A DNA stretch of 64,000 nucleotides, from assembly GCA_041645215.1 (NCBI GenBank), contig JBAZQK010000007.1:8976-72975 (forward strand), read 5' to 3'. Position 1 is the first letter of the stretch, and the number at the start of each line of letters is the position of its first letter. Both the position numbers and the translations under genes were made by a program. The DNA is from Patescibacteria group bacterium. Lineage in GTDB: Bacteria; Patescibacteriota; Patescibacteriia; Veblenbacterales; UBA10138. Below the pieces are notes generated by a model. It searched no databases, was not told where the DNA came from, and saw only the letters and a program-made list of their open reading frames with translations. Below, piece by piece: positions 1,825-63,168 of the stretch.

Positions 1825-3213
1825 TTACCACCCGAACTGACGGCCGATTTCCTCGGCCGTCTCGCGCTTGCGAGCCACCGTAATAACCCCGTTTTGAATA
1901 ATAATTTTCATAGGTGACGATAATAAACAGTGGTGTGAAGCCAGCGCATCCTGATAAGCGCCGGTATCAAGCACCGCCACATAAAGTTGATCGCCATTCT
2001 CTAAATCATCAAGCCGCGGCAAGGCTATGTAATTGCCGCCGTTAGTGTACTTGTCATCGGAATCGCAAGATAGTCCGGCTAACCAGACCCGCGCTAACCG
2101 ACGGGAGTTTAAATAATTAACTGGCAAAATATGCCATTTTTGATGAATCGCCCAGGTGTCTTTCAGATCATTCATAAAACTGCCATCAATAACATACCAC
2201 TTCTTAGCGCTGGTGTTTTTGGTGATGTCTTTTTCACTGATAACGCGATAAATCGTAATTTGCGCCGGCGCCACTAAATAGCTTCCCCATTCAGCCAGCA
2301 CATCCGGATGCGGCACATTGTTTTTGTCACAAATACTTTGGATTATCCGCAAAATTCTTTTGACAATCGCCTCGGTTGAAAACAGGGGATGTTTTAAAAA
2401 GGGCACGGGCATACCGCCGCCAATATCTATCATATCCAAACTGGGATTTTTCTTATGCAACTCCAAATATACCTGCATAGCTTTTTTAAGCGGCGTAGTG
2501 ATATCTTCCACATACTCCAGTTGTTTGGAGGTATGATAATGCAGTAATTTAAGGTTGCGAATTCGACCTAACGGCAAAATATCCTCGGCTGTTAAACCAA
2601 AGCGGTTAAACTTTTTGTCCCAATGGCCATGTACCCTAACTTGCGGATCAAGCCGAATGCCAACATCGCCTTTATAGGTTGAGAGCGCGGCCAGCTCAAA
2701 CTTATCTTCAATAATTGGTGTTATTGATAAACCTTTATCTCGTAATTCACTAATCAAAGATAAATAGTGATTGGTTTTAGGCCCGTTGCATATCACCCGA
2801 ATTTTACTGGAGAATTGCCCTTGTTCCCATAAGCGCTTAACCAGCCACAACTCATTGGCGCTGGTGACTTCAAGATTGGCGCCTTCCGATAAAATTGGCA
2901 GAACGAATTCTTTATTTTGGCTGACTTTCATTGGATAATGATAAAAAAACTTGCCGCGGTAACGGTAGGCCTTTATCCAATGATTAAAAATATTAGTCAA
3001 ATCGCTTAAACGCCGCTCAACCACAAACGGAAAGGCTATTTCCAAAGGGCTGCCAAATTTTTTGACAAGTTCCCACAGATTGTATTGATAATTTCCTTCC
3101 TTAACTATCAATTGGCCATCTTTATTCAGGTCGTAAAAATCAGTATTAACTTCCGGCCGATTAAGCCTCCACAAATTACGGTAGTATTTTAGTTTAGTCA
3201 TCTTAACGGACAA
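1825..3213 (-). CDS. speA: Biosynthetic arginine decarboxylase-like, PLP fold-type III (Orn/DAP/Arg decarboxylase family)
   Basis: The N-terminus is SpeA-like ('YNLWELVKKFGSPLEIAFPFVVERRLSDL', 'YHYPMKVSQNKEFV'). A 'DIGGGMPVPF' motif is present. It is short for SpeA. Confidence 0.72.
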   Translation of the reverse strand: MSVKMTKLKYYRNLWRLNRPEVNTDFYDLNKDGQLIVKEGNYQYNLWELVKKFGSPLEIAFPFVVERRLSDLTNIFNHWIKAYRYRGKFFYHYPMKVSQNKEFVLPILSEGANLEVTSANELWLVKRLWEQGQFSSKIRVICNGPKTNHYLSLISELRDKGLSITPIIEDKFELAALSTYKGDVGIRLDPQVRVHGHWDKKFNRFGLTAEDILPLGRIRNLKLLHYHTSKQLEYVEDITTPLKKAMQVYLELHKKNPSLDMIDIGGGMPVPFLKHPLFSTEAIVKRILRIIQSICDKNNVPHPDVLAEWGSYLVAPAQITIYRVISEKDITKNTSAKKWYVIDGSFMNDLKDTWAIHQKWHILPVNYLNSRRLARVWLAGLSCDSDDKYTNGGNYIALPRLDDLENGDQLYVAVLDTGAYQDALASHHCLLSSPMKIIIQNGVITVARKRETAEEIGRQFGW

Positions 3214-3258
3214 TTAACTATAAAACCCTTTAACGGATAATGAGATGGTTTCAATTAA

Positions 3259-3588
3259 TTATAAGACCTTCCCGCGCAACTGGCGACGTCGTTCCAACTT
3301 ACCCTTAACCTTAGCAATCTGGCGCTCAAGTTTAGGAATAATCATATCTATAGCCTCGTGCATATCAGCCGCTAGATATTCAGCGTTGATATCCGGACCC
3401 GGCACCTCCACTTTGACATCCACCCGATTAGTAAAAGCCGCCTGCCGCGACCGCTCCACGCTCAATTCTACCCGCACCCGGACTATTTGCCGCCAAAACC
3501 GCGCCAGCTTGGTAAACTTAGCGGTGGCGAAAGTTTTCAGGCTGGGGGTGAGTTTAAAGTTTTTCGCGCTGATAATCAAATTCATCAA
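3259..3588 (-). CDS. hpf: Ribosome hibernation promoting factor / RaiA (S30AE family)
   Basis: The 109-aa protein begins 'MMNLIISAKNFKLTPSLKTFATAKFTKLARF...', a typical HPF fold. Confidence 0.85.
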   Translation of the reverse strand: MMNLIISAKNFKLTPSLKTFATAKFTKLARFWRQIVRVRVELSVERSRQAAFTNRVDVKVEVPGPDINAEYLAADMHEAIDMIIPKLERQIAKVKGKLERRRQLRGKVL

Positions 3589-6072: not shown

Positions 6073-6275
6073 TTAAAAATTTAATTGTCAATTTGGCGCG
6101 GGCCGTGCTTGTCCTGTGAGCCACAGCCAGCAAAAGGTGTTTACCTTGATACCGGTTTACAAGCACACACGAAATGCGGTTCCCCACAACAGTCGCGCAG
6201 CGATACAACGGGAAGCAACGCAGTTTATGAATGTTTATGATACTGGTATCTGGGCAAACACCTTTTTAAATAAAA
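6073..6275 (+). ncRNA. Candidate structured non-coding transcript of unknown class
   Basis: It lies immediately downstream of the consensus promoter. Helices: gtgcttgt/acaagcac, and aaaaggtgttt pairing with the 3' aaacacctttt followed by 'ttaaat'. The longest contained ORF is about 32 codons (6284-6382), less than 60 aa. Confidence 0.35.
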
Positions 6276-6667: not shown

Positions 6668-7045
6668 ATGAAAAAGCTAAACAAAATATTTTTTTGGCTA
6701 TTAATAATAGTCTCGGCAATTTCCTTTCCGGGATACAAAACAGCCTGCAGTTGCGCAGACTTCTTGTTGCCAGAAGCAACTTTCAACTTCCAGGTTAATA
6801 ATCGCTCCAAAGATGTGATTACCTGCTGGATATTCAGTGATCAACTTGGACTATTCAAACCGGGTCAACTTGCTACTTTTAATAAAACCTACGACGCCGA
6901 GCATTATCCCTCGGTAGCTGATTATAAACTGGATGCTTATTTCACCGCCCGCAATGAACGGACTGGCAAGTTGAGTAAGGCAAAAAAAATTCTGCTGACA
7001 ACGCGGAAAATTGAGTTAATTGAATTCAGTGACAATGATTTCTAA
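6668..7045 (+). CDS. Hypothetical secreted protein with an N-terminal signal/TM segment
   Basis: The ORF has a hydrophobic N-terminus 'KIFFWLLIIVSAISFPG'. No recognisable domain. Confidence 0.45.
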   Translation: MKKLNKIFFWLLIIVSAISFPGYKTACSCADFLLPEATFNFQVNNRSKDVITCWIFSDQLGLFKPGQLATFNKTYDAEHYPSVADYKLDAYFTARNERTGKLSKAKKILLTTRKIELIEFSDNDF

Positions 7046-22651: not shown

Positions 22652-23151
22652 AAATCCTAAAACTTAAATCCTAAAAATAATGCAAAATGTAAAAATCTCC
22701 GCCCAAGGCGGATCTGCCTCCCTCGGCCCGCCATTCGGCGGAGCCTCGCCTGCGGCGGGGCGTGCGGGTACGAAAAATGTAAAATGACAAATTAAAATTC
22801 AAAAATTAATAGATTTTCCTATTTTTACATTTTAACTTTATGATTTTGATTTTTAATATTTACATTTTTAATTTTTTTACGATTTGAGTATTATTTACCT
22901 ACACGCCGTTCTCCTTACCATATCACTATAACACTGGATTACTTTATCATTAGCTTATTGTTGAGCCTTGTTTATTTGTTTAAGTGTTAAAGTGTTCCAG
23001 TGTTCTCGTGTTTCAATGTGATAGTGCTCCAATGAGGCGAGCGGCGGGCCTGCCCCGCTTAGCTTAAGCAGGCCAGGGAAATGACACTAAAGGCGTGAGT
23101 CTGACAACTATAATTTAGTCAACAATCGGTCTTTTGTGATATAATTAAAAT

Positions 23152-24210
23152 ATGCTTTTTCAACCCCGCACCGATCATATTGGTTTGGACATCAGTGACC
23201 ATTCTTTAAAGGCCGTTCAATTTATTAAAACCCTAAACGGCCGGCTTAAACTGGTTGGGTTAAGCGCGCAGTATCTTGCCGATGGCATAATTAAAGACGG
23301 CACAATCAAAAACACCGTTGCTTTCACCAAAGCGGTCAGTCAATTACTGCTTAAACCGACTTGGGGTAAATTTACCACCAATTTAATCGTCGCCTCACTG
23401 CCGGAAAGTCGGACTTTCATAAAAATGATTACGGTGCCCTCTTCCAATCAAGATATCGCTCAAGCGGTTAAATGGGAAGCTCAACATCATATTCCCCTGC
23501 CGTTGGAGGATACTTACTGGGATTGGCAAACCATTAAATCAACCCCCAATTTTGACAATAGCCGCCAGCCGATTTTACTGGCAGCCGCCCCCAAAGACAT
23601 CGTTGAATCATATAACCAGGCTCTTAATCAAACTCATTTAACTGCCATTGCGATGGAAATTGAAGCTCAAGCTATTGTTAGAAGCTTAATTCCCATTAAC
23701 CAAGTTAATCAGACTGAAGCCACTATGATAATAGATATTGGCGGCGACCACACCAGTCTCATAATGTTCAGTTTTGACACCATTCAATTTACCGTATCTC
23801 TGCCCATATCGGGACGCGCTATCACTCAAACAGTGGCCGACACTATAAAACTTGACGCGACCCAAGCTGAATTAGCCAAAATTAAATATGGTCTTGACCC
23901 GTCGGCACAGCACGGCGCAATTTATAAAATTCTCCAAAATATGACCAACGAACTGGTTCATCGACTTCAAGAATCACTGGTTTTTTACCAAGAACACTTT
24001 CCCAACAACCCGCCGGCGACCTCAATAATACTTTGCGGGGGCGCGGCTAATTTAAAAAAAATCGACCAATTACTGGCGGCCGAAATGAAAATTCCCGTCC
24101 GCTTAGGAAATCCGTGGTGTAATGTTTCGGCTAATGTCAACCCTCGGCCCGAGGCCGATGCCTTATCCTACACCACGGCCATTGGGTTGGCGCTGCGCGA
24201 TTTAATTTAA
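23152..24210 (+). CDS. pilM: Type IV pilus assembly protein PilM (actin-like ATPase fold)
   Basis: 'IGLDISDHSLKAVQ' N-terminus; 'IDIGGDHTSL'; a C-terminal 'CGGAANL' motif. Confidence 0.85.
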   Translation: MLFQPRTDHIGLDISDHSLKAVQFIKTLNGRLKLVGLSAQYLADGIIKDGTIKNTVAFTKAVSQLLLKPTWGKFTTNLIVASLPESRTFIKMITVPSSNQDIAQAVKWEAQHHIPLPLEDTYWDWQTIKSTPNFDNSRQPILLAAAPKDIVESYNQALNQTHLTAIAMEIEAQAIVRSLIPINQVNQTEATMIIDIGGDHTSLIMFSFDTIQFTVSLPISGRAITQTVADTIKLDATQAELAKIKYGLDPSAQHGAIYKILQNMTNELVHRLQESLVFYQEHFPNNPPATSIILCGGAANLKKIDQLLAAEMKIPVRLGNPWCNVSANVNPRPEADALSYTTAIGLALRDLI

Positions 24211-24240
24211 ATATATGCCCAGTAATACAACTTGGCTAGC

Positions 24241-24626
24241 GCTCGCCCAGTACCAGAGCAAGCACGGTACCGGGCATCACCACTGGAATGTATTGCTAAC
24301 CATCAATGAACGGCAGTATGTCAGAACTTTCATATCTAGCTTATGATTTTAGCGCTCGCCCAGCACCAGAGCCCCGAAGGAGAACAAGTTCCCTACGGGG
24401 CAGGCAAGCACGGTACTCTCGCATCGCTCCAACGGTATATTCCTCATCGGCAGCGAGCGGCCAACAATCCCAATCTTTTGACTATTCTTGGTGCCCAGGG
24501 CTCGCCCAGTACCAGAGCAAGCACGGTACCGGGCATCGCCACTGGAGTACATTGTTTACCGGCAGTGGACGGCAGTAATGTCAATACTCCCATATATAGC
24601 TCTTGGTTCTTGGGCTCGCTTCAACC
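24241..24626. repeat. Tandem array of about 3.3 degenerate 113-146-bp units (T-family) between pilM and pilN
   Basis: Units begin at 24241, 24354 and 24500, each starting gctcgcccag[t/c]accagag, with a truncated start at 24614. The middle unit is nearly identical to 27696-27844. Confidence 0.8.
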
Positions 24627-24730
24627 ACCTTTTATTATAAAATTATGTTTTGTTTAGAATTATTTAATCAATTACCTTTGTTTAACCGCGCTCGCGCTTA
24701 AGGTAGTTTAGCAAAGTTGATATACCGGGT

Positions 24731-25279
24731 ATGCCCAGAATATTACTCAATCTGCTGCCAGCTGAACAAAAAAAATACATTGAAGTAATGTTCAATTACA
24801 AGTATTTGCGCATTATAACTTTTTTGATTCTAACTTTTGCGGTGATAGCGGCCGGGGTAGTGCTAAGCTCCAGGCTTTTACTGCAGGACAACTTAAACGA
24901 CCTGTTAACCAGCAGCTTGGCCATTACGCAAAAAAATACCAATCTTGACCAGCAAATAACCCAACTTAACGCGGAATTAAAAAACATCAGCACTATCCAA
25001 AATGATTTTGTAAAGTGGTCAACGGTAACGGCTAGTATCCTGGCGACTATCCCTTTGAATATTGAACTAAACTACTTCAACATTGAAAAACAAAGCGGCC
25101 GCCTTGATCTTAACGGTCGGGCCCGGGAACGGACCGACTACCTTAAATTAAGCGAAAATTTAAGCCAACTGACGTACTTGGAAAAATTAAACTCACCCTT
25201 GACCAATCTATTGTTGCGCCAGAATGTTGACTTCCAGTTAAACGGACGTATTAATCTGAACAAATTCAGTCAGCCTTAA
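24731..25279 (+). CDS. pilN: Type IV pilus assembly protein PilN
   Basis: N-terminal 'ILLNLLP' (INLLP motif) followed by a TM segment and a coiled coil. Confidence 0.75.
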   Translation: MPRILLNLLPAEQKKYIEVMFNYKYLRIITFLILTFAVIAAGVVLSSRLLLQDNLNDLLTSSLAITQKNTNLDQQITQLNAELKNISTIQNDFVKWSTVTASILATIPLNIELNYFNIEKQSGRLDLNGRARERTDYLKLSENLSQLTYLEKLNSPLTNLLLRQNVDFQLNGRINLNKFSQP

Positions 25280-25282
25280 TTT

Positions 25283-25843
25283 ATGAAACCACTCCTGCCT
25301 AATCACCGTAAAGTGATGATCGCGACGACCGCGCTAACTATCACCGCCACTCTGGGGTTATTGGCTTTTATTATTGGGCCGAGCCTGCGCGAGATACTTA
25401 ACTTAAGTGATCAAATTTATCAACAGCGCATAGATTTAGAAAAACTTTATCGCAAAGGCAAAATATTAAAGCAAACTCTGAAAGATTACCAAACTATTAA
25501 ACCAACGGTTGGCCAGTTTAACTCTATTTATGTGGAACGAGGCAATGAACTTAACTTAATCACCGCCATGGAAAAAGTGGCGTCTGACCACACAGTCGAC
25601 CAGGAAATAATCATCGGCACCCCCGACATAAAAGGAGACAAAAATAGCTTGCCGATTCAGCTGCAAGTTAACGCCCCCCTGGCAAACTTATTAAAATATT
25701 TAGGCGGCTTGGAACAAATGGATTACTACCTGAACATTCAAACCCTGCGTGTCAGCAAATATAGCGCCCGTAGCAACGCGCCCGCGCCTAAAAACATTAC
25801 GGTATCCGCTATTTTATTGGGATCAGTTTATTATCGGCCATGA
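25283..25843 (+). CDS. pilO: Type IV pilus assembly protein PilO-like
   Basis: Single N-terminal TM followed by a coiled coil. Position after pilN. Confidence 0.6.
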   Translation: MKPLLPNHRKVMIATTALTITATLGLLAFIIGPSLREILNLSDQIYQQRIDLEKLYRKGKILKQTLKDYQTIKPTVGQFNSIYVERGNELNLITAMEKVASDHTVDQEIIIGTPDIKGDKNSLPIQLQVNAPLANLLKYLGGLEQMDYYLNIQTLRVSKYSARSNAPAPKNITVSAILLGSVYYRP

Positions 25844-26208
25844 CTATAAAACTGCCGCGATTTAAACAAATCAACACCCGGCGCTGGCTACCCTGGATCC
25901 CACTGTCAACTTTTGTCGGGCTTTTGCTGTTATTAGCTTTGTTAATTTATTTTTTGTACCGAAATTTTTATCAAACAATCGCCCAAATTAAAGTCGTTTA
26001 TGTCTTACGAACCCAAATCGCCTTAACCCAAGTGAATGTTGACCTTTATCAATCAATCTCTAAATCATGGGAGAATAAGAAAAAAATTGATCCCATAATA
26101 AACCAAATTTCAACTGATCCTTTTGTCCAGTTGAGCCAACCTAAAACAGCTGGCGACGATAAAAATAACCTAACCGGCCTAGATAAGGCCAACCAAATTA
26201 TCCCGTAG
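25840..26208 (+). CDS. Small single-TM protein, possibly a PilP-like pilus component
   Basis: Overlapping start with pilO. TM segment 'LPWIPLSTFVGLLLLLALLIYFLY'. Confidence 0.4.
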   Translation: MTIKLPRFKQINTRRWLPWIPLSTFVGLLLLLALLIYFLYRNFYQTIAQIKVVYVLRTQIALTQVNVDLYQSISKSWENKKKIDPIINQISTDPFVQLSQPKTAGDDKNNLTGLDKANQIIP

Positions 26209-26371
26209 TAGGCTTACGCGCTTGCCGCTTGCAGGGCGGGCAAAGCCCGACCCTCAAGCGGCTTTGGCCAATTTCTTTGTTAAAACCTCCGCTTTTCGCT
26301 CACCGTAGTTTTACTACGGCTCGCTCAAATGCTCGGTTTTGCCTCGAACTTGGTTCAAACCCGTAAGCCTA
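26209..26371 (-). mobile_element. X-family MITE-like element copy X2, inverted relative to X1
   Basis: taggcttacgcg...cgtaagccta. It is the reverse complement of 18441-18605 and abuts the stop codon of the 25840-26208 ORF. Confidence 0.75.
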
Positions 26372-26378
26372 CCATAGT

Positions 26379-26618
26379 TTAAACGGCGGTAACTTTTTTA
26401 ACCTGGGGTAATTCCAGATTTAATTTTGTTCTTAACACATAATTCAAAGTTATCGCCGACAATGCGCAATCAGTACAGTTTCCGCTTAATTTTATTGTTA
26501 CCGTCCCGGTCACTGGCTCCCAGGCGACAAATTCAATTTTGCCCCCGTGCCCGACTAAATAGGGCTGAATTTTTTTTAAACCAATTTTAAGCCGTTTGAT
26601 AGTTTCGGTTTTAGTCAT
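26379..26618 (-). CDS. NifU-like C-terminal domain protein (Fe-S cluster scaffold/carrier)
   Basis: 'GHGGKIEFV...CTDCALS' matches the Nfu/NifU C-terminal CxxC motif. Confidence 0.75.
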   Translation of the reverse strand: MTKTETIKRLKIGLKKIQPYLVGHGGKIEFVAWEPVTGTVTIKLSGNCTDCALSAITLNYVLRTKLNLELPQVKKVTAV

Positions 26619-26626
26619 AGGATTAA

Positions 26627-27403
26627 TTAATTCCGGGGCGATGATACAATTATCATAACTGGTTCACCCTCCTCTACCTTCCCGCCATTCCAGTCATGAA
26701 CGGCCGACGCCATAACTGTTTCTGGATATCGATAACTTTCACCCCGTTTAGTGCCGGGATCATTGGTTATAAATTCATCACCGTCAAAACCCTTAATCAC
26801 CAACATATGATACAGCGGACCGGGCCGACGGAAGTAAGGATTGCCTAATTTACGGCCCGCGGCCGGTACCAGTACTAATTTACCCGCCGTAATTGCCTGC
26901 CGAATCGCCGTGGCGTTATAAACAGCGACTGTCGCTGTTAAATTAAAATAATCTGTCATAATCGCCGCTACTTCAGCCGCGGTGGTATCTTCGTAAAATC
27001 CGCGCTGCTGTTTTTGCCATTCCACCAGCTGTAAAATCGCCTTATCAGCCTCGGCCGCAGACAAGCGCAGATTTTTATTGCCTTTAAAATACTCCGCCGC
27101 CATAATCATAGCCGCCTCTTCACAAGCTTCCTGGTAAGGTAACCCCCAATTACCATAAGGCGCCTGCACCATAAACGGCACTGGCAAAATCTTAATAGTA
27201 TGTTCAACCGCCTTAACCAAGGGTAAGGCCTTGGCCGCCGTTGCGGGCCGGCTATTATTAACCTTCACACCGGTATCAGGTTGATTTATAGATGACCGCG
27301 CCGTCAAATTGTCGAGCGAGCTGTAATTTTGACAAGCCGCGCCAGCCAATACCACAGCCAACGCCGGCGCCAATAACCACCACGGGTTAAACTTAAAACT
27401 CAT
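26627..27403 (-). CDS. Secreted protein with a C39-like peptidase domain (putative). The track ORF extends to 27634 through a MITE; the real start is probably Met78.
   Basis: After trimming there is a signal peptide 'MSFKFNPWWLLAPALAVVLAGAAC'. 'YGNWGLPYQEACEEAAMIMAAEY' resembles Peptidase_C39_2. The N-terminal 77 codons are encoded by the Y1 repeat. Confidence 0.5.
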   Translation of the reverse strand: MSFKFNPWWLLAPALAVVLAGAACQNYSSLDNLTARSSINQPDTGVKVNNSRPATAAKALPLVKAVEHTIKILPVPFMVQAPYGNWGLPYQEACEEAAMIMAAEYFKGNKNLRLSAAEADKAILQLVEWQKQQRGFYEDTTAAEVAAIMTDYFNLTATVAVYNATAIRQAITAGKLVLVPAAGRKLGNPYFRRPGPLYHMLVIKGFDGDEFITNDPGTKRGESYRYPETVMASAVHDWNGGKVEEGEPVMIIVSSPRN

Positions 27404-27462
27404 AAATACATAATAATGGCAAAACCCGCCCTTGACTAGGTTATTATTATTAATTATACTTA

Positions 27463-27637
27463 GAGATGGTTCCAAAACTCTTTCGTGGCGAAATTTCAGT
27501 TTTTCTTGCGAGACGAGGAAGGCGAGCAAAAAGAATTGAAACGTAGTAGAACTACGGTGAAATCCTTTTTGCGAAGCCTGACGAAGTCGCAGCCGAAAAG
27601 ATGAAATTACAGCAGAAATGAGTTTTGAAACCATCTC
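27463..27637 (+). mobile_element. Y-family MITE-like element copy Y1 (TIR gagatggttccaaaactc / gagttttgaaaccatctc)
   Basis: 175 bp. Its reverse complement recurs at 60048-60222. The central hairpin cgtagtagaactacggtgaa is shared with the X family. Confidence 0.75.
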
Positions 27638-27695
27638 TTAGTCTCGCTTTCATAATTCTCAATTCTTGCCCAGTATAACTACTTATGTTATAGTT

Positions 27696-27844
27696 CGCCC
27701 AGTACCAGAGTCCCGAAGGAGAACAAGTTCCCTACGGGGCAGGCAAGCACGGTACTCTCGCATCGCTCCAACGGTATATTCCTCATCGGCAGCGAGCGGC
27801 CAACAATCCCAATCTTTTGACTATTCTTGGTGCCCAGGGCTCGC
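27696..27844. repeat. Solo copy of the T-family middle unit
   Basis: About 147 nt, identical to 24354-24499 except for 2 C/T transitions. Confidence 0.8.
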
Positions 27845-27976
27845 TTTTAAAATAAAATTTATAAATGAGCTAAGCAACTTATTCAATCGTTATCTCTTAC
27901 TAACTACTTAATCTAAGCTCGCTAAATTTTATTTAACAAAGTTGTTATACTGGACTTGATTCATAATTATTAATTT

Positions 27977-28261
27977 ATGGCCCATACCAAAGCTGCCGGC
28001 TCTACCTCACTGGGCCGCGATTCCATAGCCAAACGTTTAGGCGTAAAACTTTTTGCCGGACAAAATGTTCGCGCCGGCATGGTAATTGTTCGCCAACGCG
28101 GCACTAAATTCTTTCCCGGCTCAGGCGTTAAAAAAGGCAGCGATGATACATTATTTGCCACTCAAGCCGGCACTCTTAAATTTTTTCGCAAGTGGCGTAA
28201 GAGCTTTAATGGCAAGCTTAAACTGGCTAAGATGGTTGCGGTTTTGCCACCAGAGGAATAG
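27977..28261 (+). CDS. rpmA: 50S ribosomal protein L27
   Basis: '[29 protein letters not shown]' is the canonical L27 sequence. Confidence 0.95.
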
Positions 28262-28262
28262 T

Positions 28263-28360
28263 TTATGAAGCCTCCACGGGCTTACGCCCGAGGTATCCTT
28301 CATTTTTTCGGCGAAATCCGCCGAAGTCCTCCCAAGGAGGACGAAGGCGGATAAAATTCA
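28263..28360. repeat. P-family palindromic repeat element
   Basis: Core gtcctcccaaggaggac at 28326-28342, flanked by atccgccgaag / cgaaggcggat. Confidence 0.6.
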
Positions 28361-28392
28361 AAAATCCGCTCCTATCCCAGAGCGGATTTTTT
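28361..28392. terminator. Bidirectional rho-independent terminator between convergent rpmA and pyrG
   Basis: aaaatccgctc ctatccca gagcggatttt with T/A runs on both sides. Confidence 0.7.
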
Positions 28393-28422
28393 GTAATTCC
28401 GGCAGTACAAGTGGAAATAGAA

Positions 28423-30078
28423 CTAACTGCCCTTCCCAATATCAACGCCGCTATTAAGCTGGGCTACGGCCGCGGCCATAAAATCGCGGAATAAAGGATG
28501 CGGACGCAAGGGTCGGGATTGAAATTCCGGATGAAACTGCACCCCCACAAACCACGGATGGTCGCGGAGCTCCACAATCTCTACCAGGTGACCGTCGGGC
28601 GAAGTGCCGGAAATAACCAAGCCGACTTTTTCCAAGCGGACGCGATAAGCGTTATTGAATTCATAACGGTGGCGGTGGCGTTCGGAAATCTCGCTTTTAC
28701 CATAAGCCTCATAAGCTTTGGTACCCTTAAGCAAACGGCAGTCCCAGGCCCCCAACCGCATCGTCGCGCCATAATCCTTAGCTAACATTTTCTTTTCTTG
28801 GTCCGGCATTATATGGATAACCGGGTGTTTGGTTTTAGGATCAATTTCCGTGGAATTAGCATCGGCCATATCAGCTAAATGACGGGCGATTTCCACGGTA
28901 GCCAGTTGCATACCATAACACAACCCCAAAAAAGGCATACTATTCTCGCGGGCATACTTAATAGCCGCCACGATTCCTTCCGTCCCCCGCCCGCCAAAGC
29001 CGCCGGGTACCACCAACCCCGCCATATTTTTTAAATATTTTTCCGCGCCGTCAGCTTCTATTTTTTCCGAATCAACCCAATGTAATTTTGGTTTAACTCC
29101 ATTGGCCCAGCCGGCGTATTTAAGCGACTCTATCACTGATACGTAAACATCTGACAAAACATAATCGCCAGTTGCAAAGTATTTGCCCACAATGGCAATC
29201 GACACTTCCGGTTTATCGGTTTTGACAACTTCAGCCAACTTTTGCCAATCATTTAAATCTTTACCCTTGGGCTTAAGGCGAAACTTTTTTAAGACTCTAT
29301 CGGCAAAGGCTTGCTCGTCAAATTTTAAAGCCACGTCATAAACCGATTCCAAATCAGGATTGGAAATAATATCATCGCTGTCCATATTACAAAACAAAGC
29401 TAACCGCTCCTTGCGTTTGCGGTCAAGCGGTTTCTCGGCGCGGGCCACCAAAAAATCCGGCTGAATACCCATACTATTCAACAATCGGACTGACATCTGC
29501 ACTGGTTTGGATTTCATTTCACCGACGGTCGGCGGCGTTGGCAAATAAGCCACATGTACCTGTAACACACTGTCTTTATCGCGTAATTTCATAATACGCG
29601 ATGATTCATAATAAAAAATATTTTGGTATTCCCCGGCGGTTCCACCCAGCTCGATTATAACAATATCAGCCCGCGATTTGCGACCGGCATTTTTAACGCG
29701 CCGAATAATTTCATCGCATAAATGCGGGATAGCTTCCACATCCTCACCTTCATAACCAAAAGCTCGCTCCTTGTCTATCACCGTCTTATAAACCTGCCCC
29801 ATCGTTATAAAATTGTCGCCGGACAGCGGCAAATCCAAAAATCTTTCATAAGTCCCGATATCTTGGTCGGTCTCAAGGCCGTCATCACAGACAAATACTT
29901 CTCCGTGCTCCGTCGGCCGGATCGTGCCAGCGTCCACATTCAAATAATTCTCACACTTAACCGGACACACCCGATAACCTTTGCTCTGCAATAATTTAGC
30001 TAACGACGCCGCCGCTATCCCCTTGCCAACGGACGACATTACGCCGCCGGAAATAAAAATGTACTTGATTTTCGCCAT
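28423..30078 (-). CDS. pyrG: CTP synthase. The track ORF uses GTG at 30114, inside a repeat; the likely start is 'MAKIKYIF' at 30078.
   Basis: 'KYIFISGGVMSSVGKG', a glutamine amidotransferase 'GLCYGMQ' and 'FHPEF' are present. Confidence 0.93.
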   Translation of the reverse strand: MAKIKYIFISGGVMSSVGKGIAAASLAKLLQSKGYRVCPVKCENYLNVDAGTIRPTEHGEVFVCDDGLETDQDIGTYERFLDLPLSGDNFITMGQVYKTVIDKERAFGYEGEDVEAIPHLCDEIIRRVKNAGRKSRADIVIIELGGTAGEYQNIFYYESSRIMKLRDKDSVLQVHVAYLPTPPTVGEMKSKPVQMSVRLLNSMGIQPDFLVARAEKPLDRKRKERLALFCNMDSDDIISNPDLESVYDVALKFDEQAFADRVLKKFRLKPKGKDLNDWQKLAEVVKTDKPEVSIAIVGKYFATGDYVLSDVYVSVIESLKYAGWANGVKPKLHWVDSEKIEADGAEKYLKNMAGLVVPGGFGGRGTEGIVAAIKYARENSMPFLGLCYGMQLATVEIARHLADMADANSTEIDPKTKHPVIHIMPDQEKKMLAKDYGATMRLGAWDCRLLKGTKAYEAYGKSEISERHRHRYEFNNAYRVRLEKVGLVISGTSPDGHLVEIVELRDHPWFVGVQFHPEFQSRPLRPHPLFRDFMAAAVAQLNSGVDIGKGS

Positions 30079-30220
30079 ACCCAGTATATCAACTTGGCTT
30101 AACCACCTCAGCACGAGCGTGGTTAGACAAGAATAAATGATTAAATGATTTTAGAAAAGACATAAAGTTATAATAGCTGGTGGTTAGGGCGAGTGCTAGC
30201 CAAGTTGTATTACTGGGCAT
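30079..30220 (+). mobile_element. W-family MITE-like element copy W1 (TIR acccagtatatcaacttggc / gccaagttgtattactgggcat)
   Basis: A 142-bp element that starts directly at the pyrG start codon. Its termini recur at 30221/30472, 47465/47610 and 24217-24242. Confidence 0.75.
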
Positions 30221-30472
30221 ACCCAGTATATCAACCCCGTAGAATCACGGCGGATACATCGATCAACCGTAATGTCCGGATTAATTGTAAGTAATTTGCG
30301 ATTTTCATAAATATTGATTGTCCGCCGTAACTCTACGGGGTCAACTTGGCTTAACCACCTCAGCACGAGCGTGGTTAGACAAGAATAAATGATTAAATGA
30401 TTTTAGAAAAGACATAAAGTTATAATAGCTGGTGGTTAGGGCGAGTGCTAGCCAAGTTGTATTACTGGGCAT
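30221..30472 (+). mobile_element. W-family copy W2, interrupted by nested element V
   Basis: Same termini and internal sequence as W1 (aaccacctcagcacgagcgtggttagacaag...). A 105-bp insertion lies after position 15. Confidence 0.75.
30236..30340. mobile_element. Nested 105-bp V element with TIR cccgtagaatcacggcgg / ccgccgtaactctacggg, flanked by the 5-bp direct repeat 'tcaac'
   Basis: W2 reads ...tatatcaac[V]tcaacttggc..., while the uninterrupted W1 reads tatatcaacttggc. That leaves a clean 5-bp target-site duplication. Confidence 0.7.
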
Positions 30473-30482
30473 AATAAAAAAA

Positions 30483-30929
30483 TCAACTGGCTTTAATATT
30501 TATCAATAAATTAACGGCTAGATCGCGATGCAACTGGATAGCAATAGTATGACGGCCGACGGTTTTTAAAGGCGCTGTTAATAAAATAGATTTTGGTTGC
30601 GCTTTAAATTGTTTTTTAGCCAGCGCGGCCGCGATATCGGCGCGAGTCACACTGGCATACAGCTTGCCCGAATCAGCCGCGCGGGCGTTTATTTCAATTT
30701 CCCCCATGCCTAACAGTACCGCCGCCGCCGACTGGGCTTGTTTTAAGCTATCAACCGCCAATTTAGCCGGCGTGGCGGCCTGGATTTTAATATTGGCAAG
30801 CGCTTTAGCTGTCGCCGGAATTGCCTCCCGACGCGGCAACAGATAGTTAATGGCATAACCATCACTAACTTCCTTAACCTCATTAGTATAGCCGTTACCC
30901 GGTATAGCCTTTAATAATATAACTTTCAT
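30483..30929 (-). CDS. rplI: 50S ribosomal protein L9
   Basis: 'MKVILLKAIPGNGYTNEVKEVSDGYAINYLLP' is typical of L9. Confidence 0.9.
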   Translation of the reverse strand: MKVILLKAIPGNGYTNEVKEVSDGYAINYLLPRREAIPATAKALANIKIQAATPAKLAVDSLKQAQSAAAVLLGMGEIEINARAADSGKLYASVTRADIAAALAKKQFKAQPKSILLTAPLKTVGRHTIAIQLHRDLAVNLLINIKAS

Positions 30930-46632: not shown

Positions 46633-46914
46633 CTATCCCCGTACGGCTATCAACACCCCTATTGCCAGTATAGCAGATATTGCCATTTGCAGACGAGTGT
46701 AAATAACGGGTTGGTGCAATTCAGTGCGACCAAACAAAAATCCAACCAAACCCAATACTAAAATAAAATTAAGGTCAATATACAAACTTACAAAACCCGG
46801 CCGCATTAATTCCAGCAATAGCAAAAACCACCACCCCGCCAGCAAGCCAATACCGGCCTCGGCCACAACTAATCGAGCTTTTACCGCGTATTTATGACTG
46901 ATTAAATTTGCCAT
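46633..46914 (-). CDS. Small membrane protein, hypothetical
   Basis: Three hydrophobic segments. Overlaps the downstream ORF's start. Confidence 0.35.
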   Translation of the reverse strand: MANLISHKYAVKARLVVAEAGIGLLAGWWFLLLLELMRPGFVSLYIDLNFILVLGLVGFLFGRTELHQPVIYTRLQMAISAILAIGVLIAVRG

Positions 46915-47453
46915 AATTCCGATAATTTAGCGGTGAGCGATTCAATCGCTTTATCCAGATCAAACGGCGAGCGGTAAATAGTCGCGCGCGCGCCCGTTAC
47001 CGTCACTCCCCCGGGCGACAAACCAGGCGCTGAAATCAAAAAACGCTGGCTATGGTTTGGTTCAATATATTTAAATTCATCGGCCGTTAGTAAATAAATT
47101 TGCTCGCCTGGTTTAATGGTGTGCGTAAGCGGCGGAAAATAATAATCCCAATCTCCCCCGCTGCGCCTGCCCAATTTTAGAGCTGACGACTGGCGCGTCG
47201 TGGTTAGCTCTAATTTAACGCCGCTGGCTCGCACCGGCAGTTTAACGTCAAAATAAATCGGCTCGGCCTCGAGTTTAAGGCCTACTTCAGTCCTAGTGAC
47301 GCGGCCGGCCGGCAACAGTATACCAAAGTTAGGCGTGCGTTTAACAAAATCCGTGCTGGCAATTAACGGCGCCGCGCTAAAAACCGCCTGATAAGCCATC
47401 GCGGCCGCCAAGACGAACGGTATTAGCCAACGTACATGCCAAAAATGGGACAT
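46902..47453 (-). CDS. Hypothetical secreted/anchored protein
   Basis: N-terminal signal/TM 'LIPFVLAAAMAYQAVFSA'. Confidence 0.4.
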   Translation of the reverse strand: MSHFWHVRWLIPFVLAAAMAYQAVFSAAPLIASTDFVKRTPNFGILLPAGRVTRTEVGLKLEAEPIYFDVKLPVRASGVKLELTTTRQSSALKLGRRSGGDWDYYFPPLTHTIKPGEQIYLLTADEFKYIEPNHSQRFLISAPGLSPGGVTVTGARATIYRSPFDLDKAIESLTAKLSELWQI

Positions 47454-47464
47454 AAGAAATGTAA

Positions 47465-47610
47465 ACCCAGTATATCAACTTCGCTGACAAAATTAGCGAG
47501 CGTGAGTTGAAAGACTGTTTAGTAAATAAATGATAATTTAAATCTGGTTAAGATATTAATTGCACTAATTTGGTTAAAAGCGAGCTATAGCGAAGTTATT
47601 ATACTGGGCA
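47465..47610 (+). mobile_element. W-family copy W3 (conserved termini, divergent interior)
   Basis: acccagtatatcaacttcgc ... gcgaagttattatactgggc. Confidence 0.6.
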
Positions 47611-47621
47611 AAATGTAAAAA

Positions 47622-60762: not shown

Positions 60763-63027
60763 TTAACGGGCTGTACCAACGGTTAAACCGCCCCGCCAAT
60801 TTTTGGGTTCAATAAAAAAACTTGACATAACTTGATTCTGACCATTAAACACTCGCACTTGCGGTCCGCCGCCCACGCCGGGGGTGGCCACTATTTCGCG
60901 GCTGCCATTACCATCGGTATCACCCACCGCCACGTTCACGCCGCCCCGGAAATTTTTAGCAAAGGCAAAAAACTGACGCAGAACGCGACCCTGATAATTA
61001 AACACTCGCACTTGCGGTCCGCCGCCGGCTCCGGGAGCAACTACTATTTCCGCCTTGCCGTCGCCATCGGTATCACCCACCGCCACGTTCACGCCGCCCG
61101 GGAAAGCCCAGGAAAAAGCGTAAAACTCGCTCCTTTTATTACCAAACTTGTCAAATACGCGAATCGGCAAACGCAAATTACCCGCGGGCGCGGTTACTAT
61201 TTCCGGCTGGCCGTCGCCGTCAGTATCGCCCACCGCCACGTTCACACCGCCAATATAAGACGGGTCGTACGGTATGAACTGGTACAGAATATTTCCCGCT
61301 TCATCATAAATTCTAACTAAATTAGAGCCGCCTTTGCCAACCCCAATTACAATCTCGTCTTTTTTATCAGCTGTAAAATCCGCCACCGCCACGCTCAAAC
61401 CACCCCGAAACTGTTCGGGCAAGGCCATAAATTGCGATTCCAACCCGCCTTTTAAATTAAAAATTTTGACATGCGGACCGCCGCCGGCCCGCGGCACAGT
61501 GACAACGTCAATTTGCCCGTCGCCATCCACATCACCGGCCGCCACATTAATGCCTTTGGTATAGCGCGCGTCATAGGCCAAAAACTTTTGCATTAATTCA
61601 CTGGATAAATCGTACAGCGCTATTTCCGCCGTGGCGTTAGTCTGCGGCGCTAAAAAAATCGGCGTCTTGCGGCTAAAGACTTTACTGCCGGCCAGCGCAA
61701 AGGCTTTTTGCAAATTCAGCCGGCGTCCCAACTGCCCCACCTGTCCCGGATTGGCATTGTCAACTAAATCGCCCGCGGCAATTAACACATCGCGCAGTTG
61801 TGACGGCGATAAATTGGGATAGGCTGATTTTAACAAGGCCAGCGAACCTGACACTAACGGCGCCGCCACTGATGTGCCCGACCAATAACCGCCATAATAA
61901 TCCTGAAACAAATTGTTGGCTTTATCAACAAACTGGGTACTATAAATTTTTACGCCCGGCGCCGCCAAATCAATGCACTTGGAACCAAAATTGGAAAACT
62001 CGGCTCGCACGTCGTTATCATCCACCGCCGCCACGCCAATCACCTGATTTTCACCATTAAACCCGTCACTACAAACCGGATAGTGCGGCTGCTTGTTCAT
62101 ATCTACGCCCATTTGCTGTTCATTACCCGCCGCCGCCACCACCAAAATGCCGGCCTGATAAGCGCGCTGAATCGCATCTTCCAAAATTGGGTCGGAAAAC
62201 TGACCGACAAAACTCAAATTGATAATATCGGCATGGTTAGCAATTGCGTACTGAATGCCGCGCGCTACCGTTACCGTGTCGCCCAAGCCACGGCCGTCCA
62301 ACACCCGAATGGGCATAAGGCGGGCATGCCAAGCCAGGCCCGCCACGCCTTGAACATTATTGCCGATGGCCGCGGCCACGCCGGCCACAATCGTGCCGTG
62401 GTTCATCGCCACCTCATTCCAACCGGCGTCAAACTTTGGTTCAGGGTCGGCCACATTGGCCACAAAATCCCAACCGTTCAGGTCGTCAATATAGCCGTTT
62501 TTATCATTGTCTTGTTTGTCGTTCGGCACCTCCCACGGATTAAACCAAATATTGCTGGCCAAATCCGGATTGCTGACATCGACGCCAGTATCAAGCACGG
62601 CGATTACGGAACGAATGGTTTGACTTTGCGGAACATCCCACGCCGCCGGGGCTTTAATCTTATCATAATAATTTTTTTGGAAATTGTAATCCAAATCATT
62701 TGGAATCAGGGCTAAACTGTACTGACGCACGGGCGCGACTAACTTAATGCCCGTCTGCTTGTTTAAATAAGCCTGCGCGGTTTGGGAGTTTAGCCGCTCG
62801 GAACAGCGATAACGCACAATTTGTGATGATGTCGTTACTGCCGCCAAATCGCACGGCGCCGCTACTTTAACCACCGCATCATTAACCACCGCGCCAGTAA
62901 TTTCCGCCGCCGGCAGCTTAGTAAATCCATTGTCAGCCCCATTAACGTTAGCTCCATTAACCAAAAACCCGAGCGCAACTGCCGGGACCACAAGCCAAAT
63001 AATTGTTCTGACTGGTCGTGAATTCAT
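60763..63027 (-). CDS. Secreted subtilisin-like (S8) serine protease fused to a C-terminal FG-GAP/VCBS repeat beta-propeller. The likely start is 'MNSRPVRTIIWLVV'.
   Basis: S8 triad context 'AVLDTGVD', 'HGTIVAGVAAA', 'GTSVAAPLVSG'. Then about 6-7 repeats 'GDTDGDG(Q/K)(P/A)EIV' and 'FRGGVNVAVGD'. Confidence 0.85.
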   Translation of the reverse strand: MNSRPVRTIIWLVVPAVALGFLVNGANVNGADNGFTKLPAAEITGAVVNDAVVKVAAPCDLAAVTTSSQIVRYRCSERLNSQTAQAYLNKQTGIKLVAPVRQYSLALIPNDLDYNFQKNYYDKIKAPAAWDVPQSQTIRSVIAVLDTGVDVSNPDLASNIWFNPWEVPNDKQDNDKNGYIDDLNGWDFVANVADPEPKFDAGWNEVAMNHGTIVAGVAAAIGNNVQGVAGLAWHARLMPIRVLDGRGLGDTVTVARGIQYAIANHADIINLSFVGQFSDPILEDAIQRAYQAGILVVAAAGNEQQMGVDMNKQPHYPVCSDGFNGENQVIGVAAVDDNDVRAEFSNFGSKCIDLAAPGVKIYSTQFVDKANNLFQDYYGGYWSGTSVAAPLVSGSLALLKSAYPNLSPSQLRDVLIAAGDLVDNANPGQVGQLGRRLNLQKAFALAGSKVFSRKTPIFLAPQTNATAEIALYDLSSELMQKFLAYDARYTKGINVAAGDVDGDGQIDVVTVPRAGGGPHVKIFNLKGGLESQFMALPEQFRGGLSVAVADFTADKKDEIVIGVGKGGSNLVRIYDEAGNILYQFIPYDPSYIGGVNVAVGDTDGDGQPEIVTAPAGNLRLPIRVFDKFGNKRSEFYAFSWAFPGGVNVAVGDTDGDGKAEIVVAPGAGGGPQVRVFNYQGRVLRQFFAFAKNFRGGVNVAVGDTDGNGSREIVATPGVGGGPQVRVFNGQNQVMSSFFIEPKNWRGGLTVGTAR

Positions 63028-63168
63028 TAATACTATTATGACAAAAAATCGCTCATAAGGGAAGAGGTTATTCATTTAGCGATGATAATAATTTTATCAA
63101 AATCGCCGCCGCCACATCTTAAAAAAATAAGACCAAACAAAAAACAATTAAATTTTAAAACACCCGAC

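Follow-up and report, generated by a model that had tools for sequence, protein, structure and literature searches.

The genes rplI (ribosomal protein L9) and pyrG (CTP synthase) are neighbours on the minus strand of a 64,000-nucleotide stretch of DNA from a Patescibacteria group bacterium (contig JBAZQK010000007.1), hereafter the window, and the spacer between them is filled with small inverted-repeat elements. On the plus strand, positions 30076-30473 read CATA, W1 (30080-30217), CATA, W2 (30222-30469), CATA. W1 and W2 are head-to-tail copies of a 138-bp inverted-repeat element, W, as the original prediction, made from the sequence alone, had proposed. W2 is 100% identical to W1 outside a 110-bp insert, which consists of a second element, V, plus a second TCAA(C). 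The window contains 7 occurrences of the W end motif (0.00 expected) and 2 of the V end motif (0.01 expected). The features of the locus are as follows.

28423-30078, minus strand: pyrG (CTP synthase), start ATG at 30078-30076, translation MAKIKYIFISGGVMSS...
30076-30079, minus strand: TATG flank of W1 on the pyrG side, made of the pyrG start codon and the preceding T; promoter-proximal copy of the 4-bp repeat
30080-30217, minus strand (sense): W1, intact, 138 bp, termini CCCAGTA...TACTGGG
30089-30163, minus strand: short open reading frame (mini-ORF) of W1, 24 codons, MSFLKSFNHLFLSNHARAEVVKPS and a stop; TGA at 30091-30089, within the 3' inverted repeat and 10 nt before the pyrG ATG
30218-30221, minus strand: TATG common to W2 and W1
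30222-30469, minus strand: W2, the W copy interrupted by V and the repeated TCAA; identical arrangement in an independent assembly (L019)
30231-30234, no strand assigned: TCAA, left flank of V (TCAAC at 30231-30235 if the duplication is read as 5 bp)
30235-30340, no strand assigned: V, nested element of 106 bp, inverted ends CCCCGTAGAATCACGGCGG and CCGCCGTAACTCTACGGGG with a 3x3 mismatch
30341-30344, no strand assigned: TCAA, right flank of V
30470-30473, minus strand: distal TATG, the former position of the pyrG start codon, 10 nt after the rplI stop
30483-30929, minus strand: rplI (ribosomal protein L9), upstream neighbour of pyrG, Pfam Ribosomal_L9_N/C

W1 abuts the pyrG ATG exactly, and this proved to be a rule of the W family and not an incidental feature of one copy. 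Homologues of PyrG begin at the same residue, and Pfam CTP_synth_N and GATase domains are present on an identical protein. The GTG-initiated ORF 28423-30114, which extends 36 nt into W1, has a spurious start, as had been suspected. Inside W1, the frame of the mini-ORF stays open back to the duplicated ATG at 30220, giving 43 codons. Assemblies made independently from the same strain, one at ENA (L019) and one at Logan (L020/L001), are 100% identical to the window and confirm the junction of rplI with W2 and its inserted V as well as the pyrG edge of the array. The ENA contig ends 2 nt past V and the Logan contig begins 1 nt before the pyrG ATG.

V is a nested insertion in the distal W copy

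W1 carries a single uninterrupted TATATCAACTTGGC, the exact empty site for V, and the W consensus contains one TCAAC only, so the two copies that flank V do not derive from the consensus itself. V lies in the internal loop of the W terminal stem, where it interrupts the W sequence at the TTGA containing the stop of the mini-ORF. Its interior is A+T-rich and without a long ORF, and its terminal inverted repeats of 19-21 nt reach the tips (21 nt at 90% complementarity). A metagenome scan recovered a second V from another organism (L015:6686-6790), upstream of rpsL and in unrelated DNA, flanked by TCAA on one side and TCAAC on the other; the inverted ends alone are conserved between this copy and that of the window. 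In a third sighting, a W::V composite from another organism (L018) is 97.9% identical to that of the window but follows a different gene. V thus measures 105-106 bp in 3 sightings, with the 4-mer TCAA at both the window copy and that of L015. Nested insertion by transposition, rather than duplication, is supported as the right reading of V in W2 by the empty site in W1 and by the independent V copy with its TCAA(C) flanks.

Two of the four metagenome matches to the V end (L016 and L017) had no partner end, that of L017 lying within a 233-codon ORF, and were taken as chance. Scans of viral contigs gave 0 V matches and 2 W-like matches that were likewise judged to be chance. In a 183-bp W variant on the start codon of an acylphosphatase gene (L013:986-1170), the 3'-repeat TTGA at which V lies in the window is occupied by a V-like hairpin of 38 bp (CCCGTAGTGAGCC...GGCTCTACTACGGGG). 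The W/V junction at 30317-30344 (minus strand) contains a promoter-like TTGACC-16 nt-GACAAT reading into V, which is the sole sigma-70-like match in the region and does not stand above shuffled sequences.

W elements end on start codons

At least 22 W copies in five genomes have an identical TATG on both sides of CCCAGTA...TACTGGG. With the asymmetric ends used to set the orientation of the copies, 23 of 24 have the form ...tAT-GCCCAGTAATAC...GATATACTGGGT-ATG, with the ATG opening a gene on the same strand. Counted by site over the five genomes, about 24 of 27 read TATG-W-TATG, the second ATG being the start of a same-strand gene. The W family therefore ends almost always exactly on a start codon, in the orientation of the gene. 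Ribosomal proteins make up about half of the genes downstream. Identified by inspection of their N-termini, the genes after W include those for S12, S7, S14, L2, L5, L6, L13 (twice), L17 (twice), L24, L36 and pyrG (twice); the others encode a pilN-like protein, Hsp20, a Kef-type transporter and an acylphosphatase.

The window holds 466 TATG sites, 366 inside genes and 100 touching non-coding DNA, and 46 of these 100 are start codons. A TATG preference combined with loss of intragenic insertions predicts at most about 46% of insertions at start codons (23% with free orientation), against the roughly 24 of 27 sites observed. Exceptions are two divergent copies in the window, W3 (11 nt before an ATG) and W4 (22 nt before rpmA), and a copy in L006 that abuts a 6-codon ORF.

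Distribution of W and empty sites at rplI–pyrG

A 23-nt W-end pattern searched in 185,579 species genomes was found at 13 loci in 4 of them. Two of the W-bearing genomes are named Candidatus Kerfeldbacteria and two are metagenome-assembled genomes of the Patescibacteria/Parcubacteria group; the names of three refer to groundwater or GW2011 samples. The host is a relative of Candidatus Kerfeldbacteria. At five syntenic loci in four species (L021, L022/L023, L024/L025, L026, L027) rplI and pyrG are free of W and lie 4-50 nt apart or overlap; the pyrG of these relatives is 78-83% identical to that of the window. A covariance model built from 21 W copies, on which W copies score 100-144 bits, had no match in ~95 kb of the W-less relatives.

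JACRFN01 also carries W at the pyrG start, of a different subtype. Its pyrG is 92% identical to that of a W-less relative and 81% to that of the window. Because two non-sister lineages carry different W subtypes there, the pyrG start-codon site has, on this sequence comparison, probably been hit by W twice. On the syntenic contig of one relative (L026:1730-3172), a bAvd-like gene stands beside a reverse transcriptase, as in diversity-generating retroelements; the pair is absent from the equivalent part of the window.

Other W copies and the nested element U

Apart from W1 and W2, the window contains three W copies, two of which house a third kind of element, U.

24218-24729, plus strand: long W, 512 bp, with TATG flanks at 24214-24217 and 24730-24733; a pilN-like gene after pilM has its ATG in the second of these
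24246-24354, 24359-24500 and 24505-24614, plus strand: three tandem U modules in the long W, each bounded by CTCG, at the single CTCG of W
27669-27954, plus strand: W4, divergent W, flanks CTTG/CTTG (27665-27668 and 27955-27958), 22 nt upstream of rpmA (L27), with one U at 27698-27839
47466-47608, minus strand: W3, divergent W, 11 nt upstream of the ATG of gene 46902-47453, no mini-ORF, flanks TTTG/TTTA

The original prediction had listed a solo W end at 24217-24242 next to a pilus tandem array. The end has a partner at 24711-24730, which makes it one end of a complete 512-bp W with three nested modules; the tandem array is real, and its units are the U modules inside this W before the pilN-like gene. 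The copy placed at 47465-47610 is likewise genuine and corresponds to W3. The TTTG/TTTA flanks of W3 fall inside a direct repeat of 9 bp, AAATGTAAA (47457-47465 and 47611-47619), which encloses the element together with two extra bases, CA; the repeat could be a pre-existing local one or reflect a different mobilisation event. Tandem Repeats Finder reported neither the W pair nor the U array.

U measures 106-142 bp, has the tips CCCAG[C/T]ACCAGAG...GGG and is nested in W copies at their single CTCG, which flanks it on both sides in 6 of 7 copies. Empty sites for U are found in W1 and in a short copy of the W' type (L008:1830-1969), and three further U copies lie outside the window (L004:3232-3337, 6101-6206 and 6711-6816). 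Two U-like hairpin matches (L007:3336 and 4764) fall within a 1052-codon ORF on the other strand and were set aside as chance. The three tandem U modules at 24246-24614 belong to two subtypes; the U of W4, at a distance of 3 kb, shares 98.7% identity with the middle module. Because the neighbours differ in subtype and the middle one matches the U of W4, this array appears to have grown by re-insertion into the regenerated 4-mer. The same process fits the W2-W1 pair, the run of three W in L008 and, in L004, the arrays of mixed type in front of rplQ and rplM.

In JACRFM01 (L004:5911-7097 and 3204-3456), rplQ (L17) is preceded by W and W'::U, rplM (L13) by W'::U and W, and rpmJ (L36) by W'::U; the upstream ATG copy is damaged in two of these three (TAAG, or the G missing), as if a spare start codon were being lost. 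ORFs of 90, 104, 43 and 56 codons lie wholly within W, U and V sequence of the window (24306-24657 and 30089-30472) and are likely to be called as hypothetical genes. Elsewhere in the window, a 153-bp tandem repeat (60844-61127; 1.9 copies, 81% match) within a 770-codon minus-strand ORF (60763-63075) is probably a repeated protein domain.

A 4-bp duplication and the class of the elements

At V alone, parses of 3, 4 and 5 bp are all self-consistent, as both copies share TCAAC. The 4-bp parse yields symmetric tips for W (CCCAGTA...TACTGGG) and for V (CCCCGTAGA...TCTACGGGG), and the CTTG/CTTG flanks of W4, at a non-canonical site, fix it. Given the symmetric parse and the CTTG, CTCG and TATG flanks of the sister elements W4, U and W, the target-site duplication is most likely 4 bp. 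The repeat and the insertion noted in the original prediction therefore hold, and its 5-bp duplication around a 105-bp V most likely becomes 4 bp around a V of 106 bp.

W, V and U have common tips, CCC[A/C]G...C[T/G]GGG, and a 4-bp flanking duplication whose sequence is specific to the family: TATG for W, TCAA for V and CTCG for U. W ranges from 135 to 161 bp; the window has 5 copies, a further ~25 were counted over 82 kb of related loci, and the only ORF of the element is one of 18-43 codons. The terminal inverted repeats that reach the tips are 20-23 nt at 83% complementarity in W and about 14 nt and imperfect in U. Tip-reaching repeats, flanking duplication, small size, lack of a transposase gene, dispersed copies and the contrast of filled and empty sites are the traits of miniature inverted-repeat transposable elements (MITEs). 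A conserved W-encoded protein was rejected, as element lengths vary modulo 3 and the peptides are not conserved. Membership among IS200/IS605-derived palindrome-associated transposable elements or REP/REPIN sequences does not fit either, because the inverted repeats extend to the tips and the elements lie between direct repeats of 4 bp.

The original prediction had named IS630/Tc1, IS5 and PIF-Harbinger as possible partner families, and the duplications fit none of them. An IS630/Tc1 origin needs a TA duplication, and TCAA of V, CTCG of U and CTTG of W4 are without TA at the junction. IS5 duplicates YTAR and PIF-Harbinger TWA, neither of which accommodates TATG, TCAA, CTCG and CTTG. Families of DDE transposases that duplicate 4 bp include the IS5 group, IS701, IS1380, ISH3 and IS407. 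IS1380-type ends begin with CC; the YTAR target of IS5 and IS701 is unlike TATG, TCAA and CTCG. We know of no insertion sequence with CCCAGTA or CCCCGTAGA ends, and none was found in the loci scanned. All loci (~250 kb of related sequence plus the window) were searched for inverted pairs with CCC ends at a spacing of 600-3500 bp, which gave only chance pairs and two separate W copies, and thus no autonomous partner. No transposase is evident among the ORFs of positions 1-24 kb of the window. Full-text searches of the literature gave no description of W, V or U, or of MITEs abutting start codons.

W has the signature of a sense-strand RNA

The terminal repeats of W pair over 20 bp. The resulting stem is closed by a G.U pair, contains a 3x3 internal loop that is conserved, shows compensatory G/C and A/C changes, and folds far better than shuffled controls (z = -3.8). 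Two inner helices were recognised. In S3, nt 21-26 pair with 103-108; in S2, nt 32-40 pair with 111-119, abutting the 3' repeat. Across subfamilies the sequences change and complementarity is kept, as in TCAACCACT/GGTGGTTGA, CGCCAAA/TTTGGCG and TCAATCACTT/AAGTGATTGA for S2 and AGCGC/GCGCT, AGGGC/GCCCT and AAAGC/GCTTT for S3. Self complementarity exceeds cross-subfamily complementarity for both (18.7 vs 10.3 in S2, 14.2 vs 7.7 in S3). The pairing was counted with our own scripts; MAFFT left the inner helices unaligned across subfamilies and RNAalifold returned the terminal stem only. Mismatches in S2 comprise 16 G.T and 1 A.C, and because G.T so outnumbers A.C, the pairing favours the sense strand. 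The covariance model agrees in giving ~140 bits on the W sense strand and ~35 on the antisense strand (141.8 and 38.3 for W1). S2 and S3 may form a pseudoknot or represent two alternative extensions of the stem. Rfam 15 gave no match at the gathering threshold over the whole window and none in W, V or U at E up to 5 on 24150-30550, and a search for tRNA and tmRNA genes found none.

An open frame through W and translation starts in this genome

One reading frame of W is nearly free of stops. It closes at the TGA of GTTGATA in the 3' repeat, 10 nt before the gene ATG. Across 22 distinct W copies it contains 8 stops, whereas 94 and 49 fall in the two remaining frames, and in the last 75 nt of the copies the numbers are 5 against 63 and 27. 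An ATG in this frame is present in 16 of the 22 copies and is central in 14 of these. In most copies the central ATG, with the consensus TTATG in an A+T-rich loop, opens an ORF of 18-25 codons that mostly runs to the 3'-repeat TGA. At least three copies depart from this (two in L003 and one in L011), their central ORF being off-frame from the TGA or shortened and ending at a TAG 19-21 nt before the gene ATG. Several copies, mostly of 137 and 140 bp, are open from the duplicated 5' ATG for 43-50 codons, and in W' copies the equivalent ORF ends just past the gene ATG. W3 and W4, the two copies set off from the ATG by an A+T-rich spacer, lack this ORF.

A Shine-Dalgarno core precedes 5 of the 62 genes of the window. 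The 25 nt upstream of starts are 73% A+T against 55% overall, 46 of the 62 genes have T at -1 (T-ATG), and several have TGnTATAAT 6 nt before the ATG, for example at 23137-23145 before pilM (ATG at 23152). These sequence features suggest that translation in this organism begins without Shine-Dalgarno pairing, in many cases on mRNAs that have no leader or a very short one.

A model for insertion at start codons

We favour, with a probability of roughly 0.75, the view that the rplI–pyrG spacer was filled by two insertions of the non-autonomous element W and later by V into the distal W, with regeneration of the start codon. This view builds on what is seen directly at these loci: nested insertions with their flanks and empty sites, the start-codon position and fixed orientation of W, its lineage-restricted distribution and its sense-strand structure. 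The target TATG contains ATG, and an insertion at a start codon would leave an intact TATG directly after W. The gene would thus keep its start, because most genes here begin with T-ATG and the TATG is duplicated, and this regenerated start codon would be the reason for the persistence of W. The regenerated TATG on either side could be hit again, which would produce head-to-tail arrays. V lies in the distal copy, and the intact W1 can still serve pyrG.

For the part of the model that concerns expression, we put the odds somewhat below even. W would be co-transcribed with its gene, and the terminal stem would then bury the start region. Ribosomes may translate the short W frame, beginning at the duplicated old start codon or at the conserved central TTATG in the A+U-rich loop. 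In most copies this frame stops ~10 nt short of the real AUG; in a few the distance is 19-21 nt, and in W' the stop lies just beyond the AUG. Translating ribosomes could melt the stem and re-initiate on the host gene. With such coupling, a compact genome that makes no use of Shine-Dalgarno sites could tolerate the insertion.

Several points weigh against this model. The W2/W1 tandem junction is present in the window assembly alone, as the short-read assemblies break at the repeat, and the tandem W could have arisen by local duplication instead of re-insertion. Neither the window nor ~250 kb of related loci yielded a transposase with matching ends, and the odd 9-bp flanking repeat of W3 departs from the 4-bp rule. 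The 22 W copies share ancestry, so their stop-free frame is partly inherited and the counts overstate independence. The mini-ORF peptides are not conserved. The central mini-ORF is missing from L010, L005b, L005c, W3 and W4, of which L005b and L005c are open from the 5' ATG. Finally, S2 and S3 cross and cannot both be drawn without a pseudoknot.

A broader reading, that W, V and U form an undescribed superfamily of miniature elements of the candidate phyla radiation, each family with a 4-nt target possibly set by the nucleic acid of the element instead of the enzyme, and that W, specialised on start codons, is a portable translation-initiation cassette with a structured sense-strand RNA and an in-built frame that passes ribosomes on to the host gene, colonising ribosomal-protein operons of a genome devoid of Shine-Dalgarno sites, is speculative, and we regard it as doubtful.

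Alternative explanations

Unlikely, yet the best placed of the alternatives, is that W is a module for RNA processing or stability whose stem or knotted core is cut by RNase III, by another nuclease or by itself. Cutting would part the cistrons or determine the half-life of the mRNA, as is reported for Correia and ERIC elements. The 20-bp stem with its conserved 3x3 loop, the sense-biased covarying helices and the fixed orientation to the gene would all be expected of it, as would the tolerance of hairpin 'expansions' at defined loops (V, U and a 20-nt hairpin in the 160-bp subtype). The Rfam search, however, gave no match, ribozymes included, and the stop-free frame is left unexplained. Processing is also compatible with the coupling model and does not exclude it.

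W could instead be a mobile promoter, its 3' end (TTGATATACTGGGT directly before ATG) serving as an extended -10 element for a leaderless mRNA that begins at the gene ATG, and be kept by selection for additional promoters, above all before ribosomal-protein genes. The sequence TGATATACT fits TGnTATAAT in 5 of 6 hexamer positions, and the two W ends differ exactly at this site (GATATAC vs GTATTAC), an asymmetry that is conserved. Native genes of the window have TGnTATAAT 6 nt before the ATG, and TANNNT ends 4-9 nt before the ATG in 26 of 62. In W, however, just 4 nt separate the hexamer from the A of ATG. Bacterial transcription starts 6-9 nt downstream of the -10 hexamer, which would place the start of a W transcript inside or after the ATG. 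A scan with the sigma-70 consensus found no match on the W sense strand, many copies lie within ribosomal-protein operons where no new promoter is needed, and the covarying inner helices and the stop-free frame would remain unexplained. We consider a promoter role a little less probable than processing.

Standing about level with the promoter is the possibility that the tandem of W2, with its V, and W1 is an artefact, assembled from a mixed population of W and W::V, or a local slippage duplication. The 100% identity of W1 and W2 outside V is what either would produce, and contigs break at these repeats: the short-read contigs L001, L019, L020 and L018 all end at W, U or V repeats, those of ENA and Logan at this very array and the JGI contig L018 inside V. 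On the other hand, other genomes that were assembled independently (L008 and L004) also contain tandem and triple arrays of W and arrays that mix W with W', and the U modules at 24 kb, different in subtype and with the middle one 98.7% identical to the U of W4, point to re-insertion.

Movement of W, V and U as single-stranded DNA by an HUH enzyme of the IS200/IS605 or RAYT type, with the 4-nt sequence being a cleavage or target tetranucleotide read by pairing with the element, is improbable. Such pairing would explain why elements with shared tips have distinct and highly specific 4-mers (TATG, TCAA, CTCG), and it suits the fixed orientation to a non-palindromic target and the GTAG and local 4-bp hairpins in the V ends. 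IS200/IS605 elements and REPINs, however, have neither tip-reaching terminal inverted repeats nor flanking duplications, whereas here 19-21-bp repeats reach the tips and W4 duplicates the non-canonical CTTG; complementarity between a guide and the target was not found by inspection.

Very improbable is an immobile W, an ancestral cis-regulatory leader (for example for ribosomal-protein autoregulation) lost in some lineages: W is enriched before ribosomal-protein genes, with W-type elements at L17 and L13 in two species (L004 and L012), but exact 4-bp repeats surround nearly all copies, head-to-tail arrays of 2-3 exist (window, L008, L004), genome-specific paired changes (CTTGGC/GCCAAG vs CTTCGC/GCGAAG) are common to copies regardless of location, unrelated genes follow W too, close relatives are free of it, and pyrG is occupied by different subtypes in two non-sister lineages.

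Comparison with known repeats and implications

The coupling idea has a parallel in mycobacteria. Supply et al. reportedly described in 1997 that the MIRUs of Mycobacterium are intergenic in operons and contain short, operon-oriented ORFs with stops and starts that abut or overlap the flanking genes, which was interpreted as translational coupling. Unlike W, MIRUs come as tandem units of 40-100 bp and lack both inverted repeats and target duplications; the resemblance lies in the coupling idea. Among bacterial MITEs, the Correia/NEMIS elements of Neisseria and the ERIC/IRU elements of enterobacteria resemble W in size (100-160 bp), in their terminal inverted repeats and short flanking duplication, in copy number and in the lack of a transposase. 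They are co-transcribed with neighbouring genes, fold into long RNA hairpins and affect the expression of their neighbours, and internal insertions give them size variants (PMC3184786). They duplicate TA and lie at variable distance from genes, whereas W duplicates 4 bp, usually TATG, ends on the base before the start codon and is oriented with the gene; W differs from them also in its covarying crossing helices and stop-free frame. Neisseria REP2 and Borrelia IR-A/IR-B, of 120-180 bp, lie immediately upstream of genes, to which they contribute the ATG and the 5' leader, and contain internal stem-loops (PMC3184786). REP2 and the Borrelia repeats provide a promoter and a ribosome-binding site and are without terminal inverted repeats or duplication; W is the reverse, with no Shine-Dalgarno sequence and no clear promoter. 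The palindromic elements of Rickettsia (listed in PMC3184786) are, as W, mobile palindromic repeats tolerated in a compact genome, but they insert in frame within coding sequence and are translated into protein, whereas W stays outside the protein, at the start codon.

Small transposons nested in one another are nothing unusual; the family rule of ending on the base before the start codon is what deserves follow-up. For genome work, W, V and U repeats break short-read assemblies of such genomes, and W leads to annotation errors, namely the GTG-extended pyrG and false small genes (the 43-, 90- and 104-codon ORFs). Three sister families with different exact 4-nt targets also make a compact system in which to study target choice. 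If the proposed mechanism is true, W would illustrate how mobile DNA can spread through a genome that is 85% coding and still leave the genes functional, by means of a duplicated start codon and the delivery of ribosomes to it, and would offer a natural handle on translation start in bacteria that do not use Shine-Dalgarno sites.

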